The notes under the pieces are model-generated. The model searched no databases, had not been told where the DNA came from, and worked only from the letters and a program-made list of their open reading frames with translations. DNA of 5,568 bases, taken from IMG/VR virus record IMGVR_UViG_2675903504_000001. One strand, given 5' to 3'. The stretch comes from a virus. Lineage: Duplodnaviria; Heunggongvirae; Uroviricota; Caudoviricetes. The position numbers and the translations under genes were made by a program. This document shows, one piece after another, positions 1,771 through 5,486 of the stretch; position 1 is the stretch's first letter; every line of letters begins with the position of its first letter.

Positions 1771-2244
1771 TTATTTCAGGCATTGCGTCCTGATGTATTC
1801 CTGCAGGTAGTTAACCTGCGCGGTTATCTTGTCGATTCCACTTCGGAGACGGTAATAATTGAGTTCAGCATCTGCTGTAAGTCCTGGGCTTTCTCCATCG
1901 CCCATGCCGCTGGCTCCGGTCGTTGACTTTGCACAGGTGGCGGCGACTTGCAGGCGCTTACGCCCAGCAGAAACATCAGCACGGAGACTTTCGATAGTCG
2001 CGTTAGCATCAGCAAGCTCCTTTGTGTATCTTGCGTCGAGTTCTGCTACATCACGTTGACGCTTCCGCATGTCAGCGATGGTGGCGTTCGCCTTCTCCAG
2101 TTCACTGGCCTTGTTATCGCGCTGCTCTTTGTAGGCGATTGCGTTATCACGGTAATGATTAACAGCCCATGACAGGCAGACGATGATGCAGATAACCAGA
2201 GCATAAATAATCGCGGCGACTCTGCTCACTGATCTATCCCCCAA
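1771..2244 (-). CDS. Rz: Rz i-spanin (inner-membrane spanin subunit)
   Basis: 157-aa ORF with an N-terminal hydrophobic TMD ([20 protein letters not shown]) followed by a charged, coiled-coil-like periplasmic domain. Its start overlaps the 3' end of the endolysin gene by 19 nt and it contains an embedded out-of-frame lipoprotein ORF, the canonical Rz/Rz1 architecture. Confidence 0.85.
1824..2015 (-). CDS. Rz1: Rz1 o-spanin (outer-membrane lipoprotein) embedded in the +1 frame of Rz
   Basis: 63-aa ORF entirely inside Rz in another frame. Signal peptide ends in a lipobox-like VSAC followed by a proline-rich mature region ([16 protein letters not shown]), typical of Rz1. The exact start (Met1 or Met3) is uncertain. 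Confidence 0.65.
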
Positions 2245-2759
2245 CAGGCTAATGCGCTTTCCTGGTCACGACGAATAACCTGTCCATAGCAGTTATTTGA
2301 ACGTATGCGGCAATCGCGCCCACCATCTTTTATCCACCAGCGAATCGCCTCGCATGCACCTTTACGATCACCGGCATTCAGCCGCTTATAAAACGTCGAC
2401 GGGAAACACTTACCGGGGCCAATGTTATAGGGACAAAATGACGCGATACCCGCTTTCTGTGGTTCGGTCAGTGGCACTTTAATATTGCGCTCCACCCATG
2501 CCAGCGCCTTATCCCGTTCAATGGCGTTAACCTGGTCGCATTTTTCCTTCGACAGTTTCATACCGGGAAAAACGGGTTTTCCATCCACCACCGTGGCACC
2601 CCGACAGATGGTCCAGATGCCGGAACCATCGCGGTATGCCGTTGTGTGGTTACCTTCTTTTTCATCCAGAAACTGGTCGAGAATATCAGGCGCAGGCGCA
2701 CCGACGGCAATCAGTGCCAGAACGGCAGCCGACAGGCCGTATCTGATTTTTGCGTTCAT
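2226..2759 (-). CDS. R: SAR (signal-anchor-release) endolysin, GH24 T4-lysozyme-like muramidase
   Basis: 177-aa ORF. N-terminus has K/R followed by a weakly hydrophobic Gly/Ala-rich segment ([18 protein letters not shown]) typical of SAR domains. Catalytic E-x8-D-x5-T triad is present ([16 protein letters not shown]). Size and context match the recalled K-12 Qin RrrQ-type lysozyme. Confidence 0.9.
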
Positions 2760-2864
2760 GGATATTTATCAGGATTTATCGGTTTCTGAACCCTGGATAT
2801 GTTTATCTGTCCCGGCCTGTTGAATCAGGCAAGGAATAGTTAAATACAATAGAGAGGATTGTTT

Positions 2865-2954
2865 ATGGACAATAGCACCATTTCTCTACAGGAGTTGCTC
2901 GACTGCATTTCCAAGCTTCGGGATGATGTAAATGCCCTTACTGTCGCATTTTAA
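2865..2954 (+). CDS. candidate small ORF (29 aa, MDNSTISLQELLDCISKLRDDVNALTVAF) on the strand opposite to the lysis genes
   Basis: ATG at 2865 is preceded by a strong SD (agagagga at 2851-2858, 6-nt spacing); stop is TAA at 2952-2954. It lies in an otherwise unexplained 340-bp gap between the DUF1327-like gene and the endolysin gene. No homology recognised and the peptide is not hydrophobic. Below the ORF-track cutoff, so speculative. Confidence 0.2.
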   Translation: MDNSTISLQELLDCISKLRDDVNALTVAF

Positions 2955-3102
2955 TATCTGGCATTCTCAATTCCCAAGGAACAAATGCAACCAACACTGG
3001 CATCGCTCCAGCTTGAATCACTCAACCCCAAATGGTCCCAGCAACAACAAAATTCTTTCAAGTGGCTGGCGGTATTACTGGAAGAAAAATATGCTGGTGA
3101 AA

Positions 3103-3447
3103 TTACCATTTCGGCGGAGTCTTCAGAGAACCAGTAATTCTTCCCGGTAGCTTTCCTTTGTAGGTTATCCACACATTCTGCGCCTCTAAAATTATGGGGC
3201 GCTTTTCCGGCGACAGCTCATCCCCTTCACATAACCCGGCAGCAACATCCAGGAAGACCTGTCTGATGCTCCTTCTGGCTGCTGCCTCATAAAACTCCAG
3301 CGCGGCACCTTCAACACGGTCCAGCGAGATGTCCAGGTCAAAAATTTCACCGTCAAAGCGTTTTTTGTCCCGTAACGCTAAAGTTACCGTAACTTTATTC
3401 TCAAAATTGCGGATCCCTTTCACAATCAGTTCATAGTTTTGAGTCAT
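3103..3447 (-). CDS. DUF1327-like (YdfR-like) prophage protein located between holin and endolysin
   Basis: 114-aa ORF starting 4 nt after the holin stop, with SD-like GGGGAGAG inside the holin 3' end. The holin - DUF1327 - lysozyme - Rz order matches the recalled essQ-ydfR-rrrQ-rzpQ order of the K-12 Qin prophage. Family assignment is by synteny and recalled N-terminal similarity, not verified. Confidence 0.55.
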   Translation of the reverse strand: MTQNYELIVKGIRNFENKVTVTLALRDKKRFDGEIFDLDISLDRVEGAALEFYEAAARRSIRQVFLDVAAGLCEGDELSPEKRPIILEAQNVWITYKGKLPGRITGSLKTPPKW

Positions 3448-3451
3448 TGAA

Positions 3452-3667
3452 TTACTCTCCCCGTGCAGCCTTACGCTTGTCTTCTTTAATCTTGAAATAA
3501 AGGTTTGTCAGGTACGTCAGCATGCCAAATACCAGGCTACCCAGCACTCCAATTGCCGCCCACTGTGAGGGCGTGACTTTATCTAGCAGCTGTAAAAACC
3601 AGTACCCGGCACTACCTGCTGAGGTGCCATAGGCGACACCCGTTGTTAACTTATCCATGGATTTCAT
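3452..3667 (-). CDS. S: class II pinholin, phage 21 S21-like (71 aa) with dual-start motif
   Basis: 71-aa ORF beginning MKSMDK (Met1 and Met4, the S21-71 antiholin / S21-68 holin dual-start arrangement). Two TMDs are present ([19 protein letters not shown] and [23 protein letters not shown]) with a charged C-terminus ([13 protein letters not shown]). Strong SD GAGGTG lies 6 nt upstream of Met1. Near-identity to phage 21 S / K-12 EssQ is recalled from memory. Confidence 0.9.
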
Positions 3668-3777
3668 AACCCCACCTCGCAGACAAAGCGGGTGTAAATT
3701 GAGGGAATACTACGAAACGTAACAGACTCGGAGTCAGTGAATAACTCAGGTATTGGGTTATCAGCTAATATCGAGAC

Positions 3778-3812
3778 TCAAAAAATGGAAAAACCCGCTC
3801 GACGGCGGGTTT
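3778..3812 (-). terminator. rho-independent terminator on the - strand ~110 bp upstream of the holin start
   Basis: Perfect hairpin aaacccgc/tcgacg/gcgggttt at 3791-3812 (GC core cccgc/gcggg). On the - strand RNA it is followed by UUUUUCCAUUUUUUG (complement of plus 3779-3793). On the + strand it is followed only by UUUAAGC, so it is oriented for - strand transcription. Confidence 0.5.
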
Positions 3813-4240
3813 AAGCTGTGTGACGAAGTAACCACTCTTAACAGCATAACCAATTTTTTACGTACGTAAACCACTAAATGATATTTGCGAGAATGCTACC
3901 GAGTATTGAAAACACCACTACAAATACATAAGCAAATCTCAACAAATAACCAACAAATAATTTCCAGTGTTATTTTTAGCCGGTTTAAATTGAACCTTCA
4001 AATTATAGAGCACTTATAAATAACAGCCGTTAATATAAATTGGCTAATAGATTTATTTTTATTCAGCCAAGAGCCATGAATAGGATTCGATAGAAAAAAG
4101 TTCAGATAAAAATAGAGATCTACTTCACAAATCAAACGAGAAACCAAAACTTACATCTTGAAATAATCACATTGATTAGATGAATATTTATCGCGCAGTG
4201 ACATCATTTTTTAATAATAGTTCAAAAAAAAGGGCTCACG
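3813..4240. promoter_or_regulatory. AT-rich divergent regulatory region upstream of the porin gene, with an OmpR-box-like motif and candidate promoter elements
   Basis: About 430 bp of A/T-rich sequence with many A-tracts. TTACATCTTGAAAT at 4151-4164 resembles recalled OmpR-site sequence from ompC/ompF promoters (ACATTTTGAAAC). Candidate -35 TTGAAA (4158-4163) and -10 GAATAT (4182-4187) with 18-bp spacing. Porin SD aaggg lies ~8-12 nt before ATG 4241. Promoter assignment is weak. Confidence 0.35.
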
Positions 4241-5323
4241 ATGAAAAAATTAACAGTGGCAATTTCTGCTGTAGCTGCATCAGTACTGATGGCGATGTCT
4301 GCTCAGGCAGCTGAAATTTATAATAAAGACAGTAACAAGCTGGATCTGTACGGGAAAGTTAATGCTAAGCACTACTTCTCCTCTAATGATGCAGATGATG
4401 GTGATACTACTTATGCCCGTCTTGGCTTCAAAGGTGAAACCCAAATCAACGATCAACTGACTGGTTTCGGTCAGTGGGAATATGAATTCAAAGGCAACCG
4501 CGCTGAATCTCAAGGTTCCTCCAAAGATAAAACCCGTCTTGCCTTCGCTGGCCTGAAATTCGGTGACTACGGCTCCATCGATTATGGCCGTAACTACGGT
4601 GTAGCATACGATATTGGTGCATGGACCGACGTTCTGCCAGAATTCGGTGGCGATACCTGGACCCAAACAGATGTATTCATGACTGGTCGCACCACAGGTG
4701 TTGCAACTTATCGTAACAACGACTTCTTTGGTCTGGTTGATGGTCTGAACTTTGCTGCTCAGTATCAGGGTAAAAATGACCGCACTGACGTAACTCAAGC
4801 TAATGGTGATGGTTTCGGTTTCTCCACTACTTATGAGTATGAAGGTTTCGGCGTAGGTGCAACCTATGCTAAATCTGACCGCACTAATAATCAGGTTATC
4901 TACGGTAACAACAGCCTGAATGCATCTGGTCAAAATGCTGAAGTATGGGCAGCTGGTCTGAAATATGATGCGAACAACATCTATCTGGCTACCACCTATT
5001 CTGAAACCCAGAACATGACTGTTTTTGGTAATAACCATATTGCCAACAAAGCACAAAACTTCGAAGTAGTTGCACAATATCAGTTCGACTTCGGTCTGCG
5101 TCCGTCCGTTGCTTACCTGCAATCTAAAGGAAAAGACTTGGGTGCGTGGGGTGATCAGGACCTGGTTGAATATATTGATGTAGGTGCAACCTATTACTTC
5201 AACAAAAATATGTCCACTTTTGTTGATTACAAAATCAACCTGATTGATAAGAGCGATTTCACGAAAGCATCTGGCGTTGCTACCGATGATATCGTTGCTG
5301 TAGGTATGGTTTACCAGTTCTAA
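4241..5323 (+). CDS. nmpC: outer-membrane general porin, OmpC/OmpF/PhoE superfamily; prophage-encoded NmpC/Lc (OmpD-like) type
   Basis: 360-aa ORF with signal peptide [23 protein letters not shown] / AEIYNKD. Porin hallmarks throughout: [109 protein letters not shown], and C-terminal aromatic F (VYQF). N-terminus and overall sequence match recalled E. coli NmpC / phage PA-2 Lc. Location between the phage late regulator region and the holin matches the DLP12 quuD-nmpC-essD arrangement. Confidence 0.93.
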
Positions 5324-5338
5324 TTTGATTACTAAAAG

Positions 5339-5421
5339 ATATGTTGCGGGAGGCTTTGCCTCCCCAACATATAAGTGGCTCCCTCAAGCCACTTCCTTTA
5401 GAAGCACAACCTTGCTTCTAA
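5339..5421. other. array of three immediately adjacent perfect or near-perfect stem-loops; the first (5339-5372) is a candidate - strand terminator (tR'-like)
   Basis: Hairpin A 5339-5372: atatgttg-c-gggaggc/ttt/gcctccc-caacatat (15 bp with a 1-nt bulge). Hairpin B 5373-5394: aagtggct/ccctca/agccactt (8 bp). Hairpin C 5398-5421: ttagaagca/caacct/tgcttctaa (9 bp). On the - strand RNA, hairpin A is followed by CUUUUAGUAAUC; on the + strand it is not followed by a U-run. Confidence 0.45.
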
Positions 5422-5450
5422 CTATATAAACCTTCTGTTATATATTACCC

Positions 5451-5486
5451 TTTATTTTTGGGGGCGTTGCAACGCCCCATTTTTAA
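5451..5486 (+). terminator. rho-independent terminator of the porin gene
   Basis: Perfect GC-rich palindrome ggggcgttgcaacgcccc at 5461-5478, preceded by tttatttttg and followed on the + strand by AUUUUUAAUAAC (T5 at 5480-5484). On the - strand it is followed by an A-run, so it is + strand specific. Confidence 0.6.

Follow-up and report, generated by a model that had tools for sequence, protein, structure and literature searches.

The AT-rich tract at 3813-4240 of the window (the whole 5,568-nucleotide stretch of viral DNA analysed here) is the promoter and control region upstream of nmpC/lc, the lambdoid-prophage porin gene of DLP12 and PA-2. It is very probably the sigma-70 promoter of a "moron" porin that is activated by CRP, repressed by OmpR at the -35 element, and coated by H-NS upstream, with a transcript to which RybB can pair. 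Control of the nmpC/lc upstream region by OmpR, CRP, and H-NS is already recorded in the literature and databases, and the finding is not new: PnmpC of DLP12 in K-12 and the PA-2 lc promoter (Blasband 1986; Coll 1994) represent the same locus, with the same start, CRP sites, OmpR repression, and H-NS binding.

Alignment of 3813-4240 with Escherichia coli K-12 MG1655 shows two substitutions (3888 and 3954) and a single additional A within the A-run 4224-4231. Positions 4100-4223 are identical, so published K-12 experiments apply directly to this upstream region; all of the nmpC experiments cited below were done in K-12, whose nmpC is interrupted by IS5, and not in the strain of this window. The interval 3668-4300 has megablast matches in 3297 of 5426 complete E. 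coli genomes, with identities of 99.4-99.8% to DLP12-type prophages and phage 434B and 94.8% to the PA-2 lc record. The features are collected in Table 1.

Table 1. Features of the window, in order of position (+, plus strand; -, minus strand;., no strand assigned)
Feature	Positions	Strand	Basis
Rz-type spanin gene	1771-2244	-	
Phage lysozyme gene	2226-2759	-	
DUF1327 gene	3103-3447	-	
Class II / P21-type holin gene (essD/S homologue), divergent from porin gene	3452-3667	-	Pfam Phage_holin_2_1, E = 3e-35; position as essD and 434B holin
Intrinsic-terminator-like hairpin and T-run, between AT-rich region and holin gene	3791-3812	-	Terminator scan: 8 pairs, 5 GC pairs
"Promoter island" nmpC(-)/essD(+), H-NS-bound in K-12	3806-4159	.	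PMC3661553 Table 1, 576129_354, aligned to K-12
Distal CRP-like site TGTGAcgaagtAACCA, core 3819-3834	3816-3836	+	J02580 misc_binding 1067-1087, mapped by alignment to PA-2 lc
Porin regulatory module, ~83% identity with second porin locus by yedK	3903-4240	+	Megablast query 236-614 or 236-633; locus L005; allele alignment
Proximal CRP site AGAGAtctactTCACA, centre -73.5	4114-4129	.	J02580 misc_binding 1363-1383 (maps to 4112-4132)
OmpR ChIP-exo peak of K-12, centre 4152 (-43)	4122-4182	.	PMC5438342 Supplementary Table 1, peak P4
OmpR-like 20-mer CTTACATCTTGAAATAATCA, includes motif 4151-4164, overlaps -35	4150-4169	+	-45 to -26; PWM 11.6 bits
-35 hexamer TTGAAA	4158-4163	+	-37 to -32, by position from mapped start
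-10 hexamer GAATAT, 18-bp spacer	4182-4187	+	Inferred from start at 4195; alternative AATATT 4183-4188
Transcription start site G	4195	+	TSS-seq, Kim et al. 2012; 5' RACE, PMC11677980
5' UTR, 46 nt, Shine-Dalgarno AGGG at 4231-4234	4195-4240	+	Start site and ATG at 4241; RBS annotated in 434B
Predicted RybB pairing region; seed target CAGUGGC 4254-4260, codons 5-7	4231-4261	+	RNAduplex with K-12 RybB, -22.4 kcal/mol
Intact porin gene nmpC/lc, 360 aa	4241-5323	+	Pfam Porin_1, E = 4e-153; annotation of near-identical records
Intrinsic terminator of porin transcription unit	5461-5486	+	Terminator scan

Start site, core promoter, and CRP

The transcription start has been mapped repeatedly in K-12. 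TSS-seq placed the nmpC start at position 576093 (v2), with 331 reads and a 45-nt UTR (Kim et al. 2012), and the 51 bases printed in that study, which end at the start, correspond to 4145-4195 of the window, identifying the start as G4195. A 5' RACE study of 2024 also reports a "G", in agreement with mapping from 1986 and 1994 (PMC11677980). A sigma-70 promoter made up of TTGAAA, an 18-bp spacer, and GAATAT would initiate at this G to give the short leader listed in Table 1. The -10 hexamer is unchanged in all alleles compared in the allele alignment. Promoter activity requires -199 to -1, as published for sequence identical over 4100-4223. A generic promoter scan of 3600-4350 found no promoter, though the mapped one lies there.

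Studies of K-12 indicate how this promoter behaves. PnmpC is the main driver of IS5 transposase expression; Crp activates it at two operators, and OmpR, IHF, and MprA repress it (PMC11677980). The IHF consensus WATCAANNNNTTR has no match here, although the literature names IHF as a regulator. Warming from 23 to 37 degrees raises nmpC expression 16.5-fold, and nmpC is listed beside ompF among genes with strong pH dependence.

CRP sites upstream of the porin gene are annotated in GenBank J02580 and are absent from the first-pass annotation of this DNA, which was made from the letters alone and whose main points (an OmpR box, binding by H-NS, and a phage porin under host regulation) otherwise hold. 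The proximal CRP site carries 8 of the 10 consensus bases of TGTGA-N6-TCACA, including one perfect half-site, a grade of match expected 2.8 times per window, and is unchanged in all E. coli alleles examined. Measured from G4195, its centre is 2 bp off -71.5, one of the canonical class I positions (-61.5, -71.5, -82.5, and -92.5). Published experiments place CRP binding somewhere in the nmpC upstream region, and nmpC is among the CRP genomic-SELEX targets (PMC3105977). Bound at AGAGAtctactTCACA, cAMP-CRP would activate the promoter in a class-I-like manner; the dependence on CRP comes from the literature, and the geometry is suggested by the spacing. The distal CRP-like site lies ~369 bp upstream of the start, beside the minus-strand terminator.

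Base composition and H-NS

The first-pass annotation described the region as far more AT-rich than its flanks, and this is borne out by a GC content of 30.8% in 3813-4240 and 29.0% in 3903-4240, compared with 46.7% in the rest of the window, 49% in the holin gene, and 44% in the porin coding sequence. The description of the region as A-tract-rich holds only insofar as such runs are present. Runs of A/T of at least 4 bases are no commoner than composition predicts (9 observed; 9.0 expected from mononucleotide and 11.3 from dinucleotide shuffles), and those of at least 5 bases show a marginal excess (7 observed vs 3.4-4.4 expected, P = 0.04-0.10). The A-tracts are thus a consequence of AT-richness. 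AA/TT dinucleotides show no 10-11 bp periodicity in the region, so its A-tracts are without helical phasing, and with run counts that follow composition the sequence offers no support for the proposed curvature. Nor does AT-richness mark horizontal acquisition, as had been suggested: the upstream regions of the core porin genes ompF (31% GC) and ompC (33%) and of chromosomal ompD orthologues (27-37%) are just as AT-rich.

The same annotation called the promoter H-NS-silenced. Occupancy by H-NS is documented in published K-12 ChIP-chip data: Shavkunov and co-workers list the nmpC/essD island (576129, 354 bp) as bound in all three sets and score it "A" (PMC3661553). Silencing is contradicted by the 331 TSS reads in K-12 and by expression of the IS5 transposase from this promoter. 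The high-affinity H-NS motif TCGATAAATT, allowing up to 2 mismatches, occurs 7 times vs 6.8 expected, which is no better than background, and because the motif is not enriched, H-NS binding probably follows AT content. In the proposed reading H-NS coats the 29% GC DNA upstream, at about 3806-4159, and it probably contributes to the strong 23-to-37 degree induction of nmpC, which fits H-NS-type thermoregulation.

These observations also bear on an alternative in which the tract serves chiefly to nucleate H-NS: as such a platform, or "promoter island", it would silence or insulate both the moron and the adjacent lysis genes, with the specific regulators secondary. Binding in all of the ChIP-chip studies and the island classification, the low GC content, and the temperature induction of nmpC are what such a platform would show, but a promoter this well expressed in K-12 is not, core porin promoters are equally AT-rich, and neither H-NS motif enrichment nor A-tract phasing is found. 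The platform is an unlikely choice as the principal role of the tract, although as a component it complements the reading of the region as a CRP-activated, OmpR-repressed promoter and does not exclude it.

OmpR at the -35 element

The OmpR-box-like motif TTACATCTTGAAAT singled out from the letters lies at 4151-4164, which corresponds to -44 to -31, and overlies the -35. The claimed positions are right, with TTACATCTTGAAA(T) at 4151-4163(4) followed by CACATTGATTAGATGAATATTT at 4168-4189. What was proposed as the other half of the site (CACATTG...ATATTT) corresponds to promoter spacer and -10 sequence and scores 3.2 bits. The motif lies within a single OmpR-like 20-mer, 4150-4169. The 12-specified-base core of ompC site C1, TTACATNTTGAAA, is matched exactly in the nmpC box; up to one mismatch, the C1-core pattern is expected 0.05 times per window, a figure for a pattern picked after the fact. 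The second half-site of the box is GAAAT, not GAAAC. Just upstream, nmpC GAAACCAAA at 4140-4148 is identical to ompF F2b.

The scoring matrix was built from the six classical 20-bp OmpR sites (F1-F3, C1-C3), each confirmed in K-12 ompF/ompC upstream sequence. With this matrix, 4150-4169 scores 11.6 bits, in line with F1 (12.8) and C1 (10.6) when each is left out of the matrix, and ranks fifth in the window. As a matrix hit it is no better than background, the outcome that the first-pass annotation had named as counting against the box: shuffled by dinucleotides, the 428-nt region reaches 11.6 bits in 58% of cases. Among the scanned starts 4120-4175 (about -75 to -1), no other 20-mer exceeds 5 bits. 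The motif is invariant across diverged E. coli alleles.

Binding data from K-12 locate OmpR at this box. A ChIP-exo study reports peak P4, "nmpC", at 576106-576166 (Seo et al. 2017; PMC5438342), which aligns to the window with its centre inside the motif, 43 bp upstream of the start. The coordinates are v2, as shown by the ompF peak; the essD and nmpC positions confirm the mapping, and in the same data the ompF and yedS peaks fall on canonical OmpR boxes, which validates coordinates and resolution. The entry "distance to TSS 43" in the ChIP-exo table does not imply a start near 4109: the TSS-seq start is 576093 (4195), and the table gives the distance without sign, the peak centre lying upstream. 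The signal-to-noise ratio at nmpC is weak, 2.26 vs 43-111 for ompF, ompC, and ompX (PMC5438342). The motif stands above chance because the ChIP-exo peak centres on it and because it is invariant across alleles.

Expression data give the direction of control. Knock-out of ompR raises nmpC from 19.0 to 46.5 FPKM in K-12 RNA-seq (2.4-fold, log2 1.29, class "Rep"), and the same study places nmpC among the OmpR targets already on record, with reference to Coll et al. 1994 (PMC5438342). Repression by OmpR is thus reported by two independent sources (PMC11677980, PMC5438342). The proposal that a phage-borne porin is under host OmpR control is upheld by the ChIP-exo peak and the change in the ompR knock-out, with repression as its direction.

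It is improbable that the motif is no more than the -35 of a CRP-dependent sigma-70 promoter together with the bases upstream of it, alike to C1 by chance, with the OmpR effect indirect or exerted through other nearby sequence. The matrix score shared with shuffles and the weak ChIP-exo signal are compatible with this, and TTGAA is the conserved -35 of ompD orthologues that lack the TTACAT part; such a coincidence would nevertheless have to accommodate a peak centred at 4152 on the motif, the only 20-mer above 5 bits among starts 4120-4175, a 12-base core exactly as in C1, and OmpR repression in both sources.

For OmpR acting directly, the simplest explanation of repression is occlusion: OmpR would bind the ompC-C1-like box CTTACATCTTGAAATAATCA at -45 to -26 and exclude RNA polymerase, as the box covers the -35 hexamer. 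The exact bases contacted are inferred from the likeness to C1, and the site footprinted by Coll et al. 1994 may not coincide exactly with 4150-4169. GAAAC (4140), CTTAC (4150), and GAAAT (4160) are spaced at exactly 10 bp. This phasing, together with the F2b identity of GAAACCAAA, suggests that OmpR may contact more than the single 20-mer. The arrangement differs from that of ompF and ompC, where OmpR sites are activating: nmpC has one box over the -35, repression, and a ChIP signal 20-50 times weaker. An ompF/ompC-type array of three contiguous activating sites (-100 to -40) is absent in the scanned starts 4120-4175. Under such control the phage porin would fall in high osmolarity or acid, like ompF. 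A full-text literature search for the motif string returned no relevant paper.

A caution applies to all of these scans. The OmpR matrix, the CRP consensus, the H-NS motif, the A-tract counts, and the promoter scan all failed to separate documented sites from the AT-rich background.

Prophage surroundings, RybB, and related porin loci

The minus strand of the window carries a lambdoid-prophage lysis cassette and the plus strand an intact porin gene. In related prophages nmpC/lc has the Q antiterminator gene on one side and the holin on the other, and its transcription opposes that of the late operon. Like the lambda bor and lom morons, the nmpC unit has its own promoter and terminator, is located in the late region, is expressed in the lysogen, and encodes an outer-membrane protein. 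The features expected of a phage moron are all found: a start at 4195, a terminator at 5461-5486, expression without induction, and flanking lysis genes and Q in related prophages. Unlike bor and lom, it is placed between Q and the lysis genes in the opposite orientation to the late operon, and late transcription must consequently read through it in antisense.

Several other features of the surroundings were noted. The endolysin and holin genes are not adjacent here, unlike in DLP12 and 434B (window 2760-3447): between them are the DUF1327 gene, which is downstream of the holin here and missing from DLP12 and 434B, and ~340 nt without a convincing gene. On the minus strand, 1072-1569 is a KilA-N/ORF11CD3 (antirepressor-like) gene, and the next ORF (806-1075, 89 aa) begins at an ATGA in which its start and the stop of the KilA-N gene overlap, an arrangement that suggests translational coupling. 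Ahead of the porin terminator, 5324-5486 holds two long hairpins, at about 5340-5372 and 5375-5398. An sRNA, IpeX, has been described downstream of nmpC in K-12; it has no annotation in the RefSeq record examined, and Rfam gave no match in the window.

The terminator-like hairpin at 3791-3812 points at the holin gene, ~125 nt upstream of its start codon, and late transcripts from Q/pR' that pass through the antisense porin gene must cross it. The terminator scan expects 0.6 such hairpins by chance, and this one is kept in PA-2, 434B, and alleles of 91-96% identity. TSS-seq reported a minor essD start site with 7 reads (Kim et al. 2012) that maps to window 3779, directly after the T-run, and that may reflect RNA processing instead of a promoter. 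The conserved minus-strand terminator just upstream of the holin, the reported start at 3779, and the position of Q beyond the porin in related prophages with the holin on the other side raise the idea that the chief role of the region is on the minus strand, as part of a long leader that Q-modified RNA polymerase crosses on its way from pR', beyond the porin gene, to the holin, with terminator 3812-3791 keeping the lysis genes off in the lysogen, but this is very unlikely given that nothing within 3813-4240 resembles a minus-strand signal, that conservation is strongest in the porin core promoter, and that a porin locus outside any prophage carries the same module without lysis genes.

On the plus strand, the porin transcript is a predicted target of RybB, although not in the way first suggested. 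The 5' UTR had been proposed as the sRNA target, yet the leader is just 46 nt long and the bases that match the RybB seed fall within codons 5-7. This 5' seed, GCCACUG in the K-12 gene, is perfectly complementary to CAGUGGC at 4254-4260. The predicted duplex reaches back to the Shine-Dalgarno at 4231, so that only the last ten bases of 3813-4240 are involved, and the best duplex confined to the UTR reaches -12.5 kcal/mol vs -22.4 kcal/mol when extended into the coding sequence. After transcription, RybB could thus pair from the Shine-Dalgarno to codon 7. The leader fold is not unusual (z = -1.3), and an Rfam scan of the whole window, with E up to 1, found nothing in or near the region. nmpC is a reported RybB target (PMC3333887, citing Gogol 2011), and the four sRNAs known for Salmonella ompD each pair within the coding sequence, none in the leader (PMC3333887). 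A separate study names "RyhB" as the sRNA acting on nmpC (PMC11677980); RybB has the perfect seed match and is reported elsewhere, and "RyhB" may be a slip for RybB.

Comparison of alleles that are 83-96% identical overall shows a sharp division: 4101-4240, which holds the CRP site, OmpR box, -10, and leader, is nearly invariant, and 3900-4100 is variable. The regulatory module recurs at a second porin locus, located between yedK and the ybcM-ybcL-emrE block near fliE (L005 4001-4398, L004 4001-4379). Some strains, such as the one whose record is labelled DH5alpha, retain the module plus the opening 40 nt of the coding sequence but have no annotated porin gene, which leaves an orphan promoter. 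Identification of this second locus with K-12 yedS was rejected, as the K-12 yedS upstream region differs and has its own strong OmpR box.

Chromosomal relatives share the core. Seventeen OmpD-type loci from Salmonella, Citrobacter, Enterobacter, and Lelliottia align with the same AAACTTA..TTGAA followed by an A-rich -10. As in nmpC, ompD orthologues have a CRP-type TCACA half-site upstream and a conserved RybB seed target CAGUGGC early in the coding sequence. Salmonella ompD starts at the homologous place, 69 nt upstream of the AUG (PMC3333887), giving a leader of 69 nt vs 46 nt in nmpC. The CRP-like centre is at -73.5 in nmpC vs -81.5 in Salmonella ompD with the -35 unmoved, a shift of 8 bp and not a full helical turn.

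The OmpR box is where these promoters part. At its position ompD orthologues have ACTTATTATTGAA, with TTATTA for TTACATC, and score -9 to +6 bits vs 11.6 in nmpC; the E. albertii allele has CCTGGTTCTTGAA and no box there. Some ompD orthologues have an OmpR-like 20-mer one helical turn upstream. Because the ompD orthologues and the E. albertii allele lack the box at that position, it can be suggested, tentatively and from sequence comparison, that the box over the -35 arose in the phage-borne nmpC/lc lineage of E. coli. This possible lineage specificity is the sole mildly new point of the analysis. If true, an OmpD-type CRP promoter became OmpR-repressed and ompF-like through a small number of base changes (ACTTATTATTGAA to ACTTACATCTTGAAA), and the prophage porin would be withdrawn under conditions in which the host switches to OmpC.

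The main use of these results is in annotation: they locate the transcription start, the core promoter, and the regulator sites for a prophage porin gene that is widespread. In contrast to DLP12, with its IS5-interrupted nmpC, the porin gene here is intact (360 aa, no IS5), so that this promoter drives a functional gene and the porin is probably made, under OmpR, CRP, and H-NS. An intact, regulated porin bears on antibiotic permeability, phage and colicin receptors, and heat resistance.
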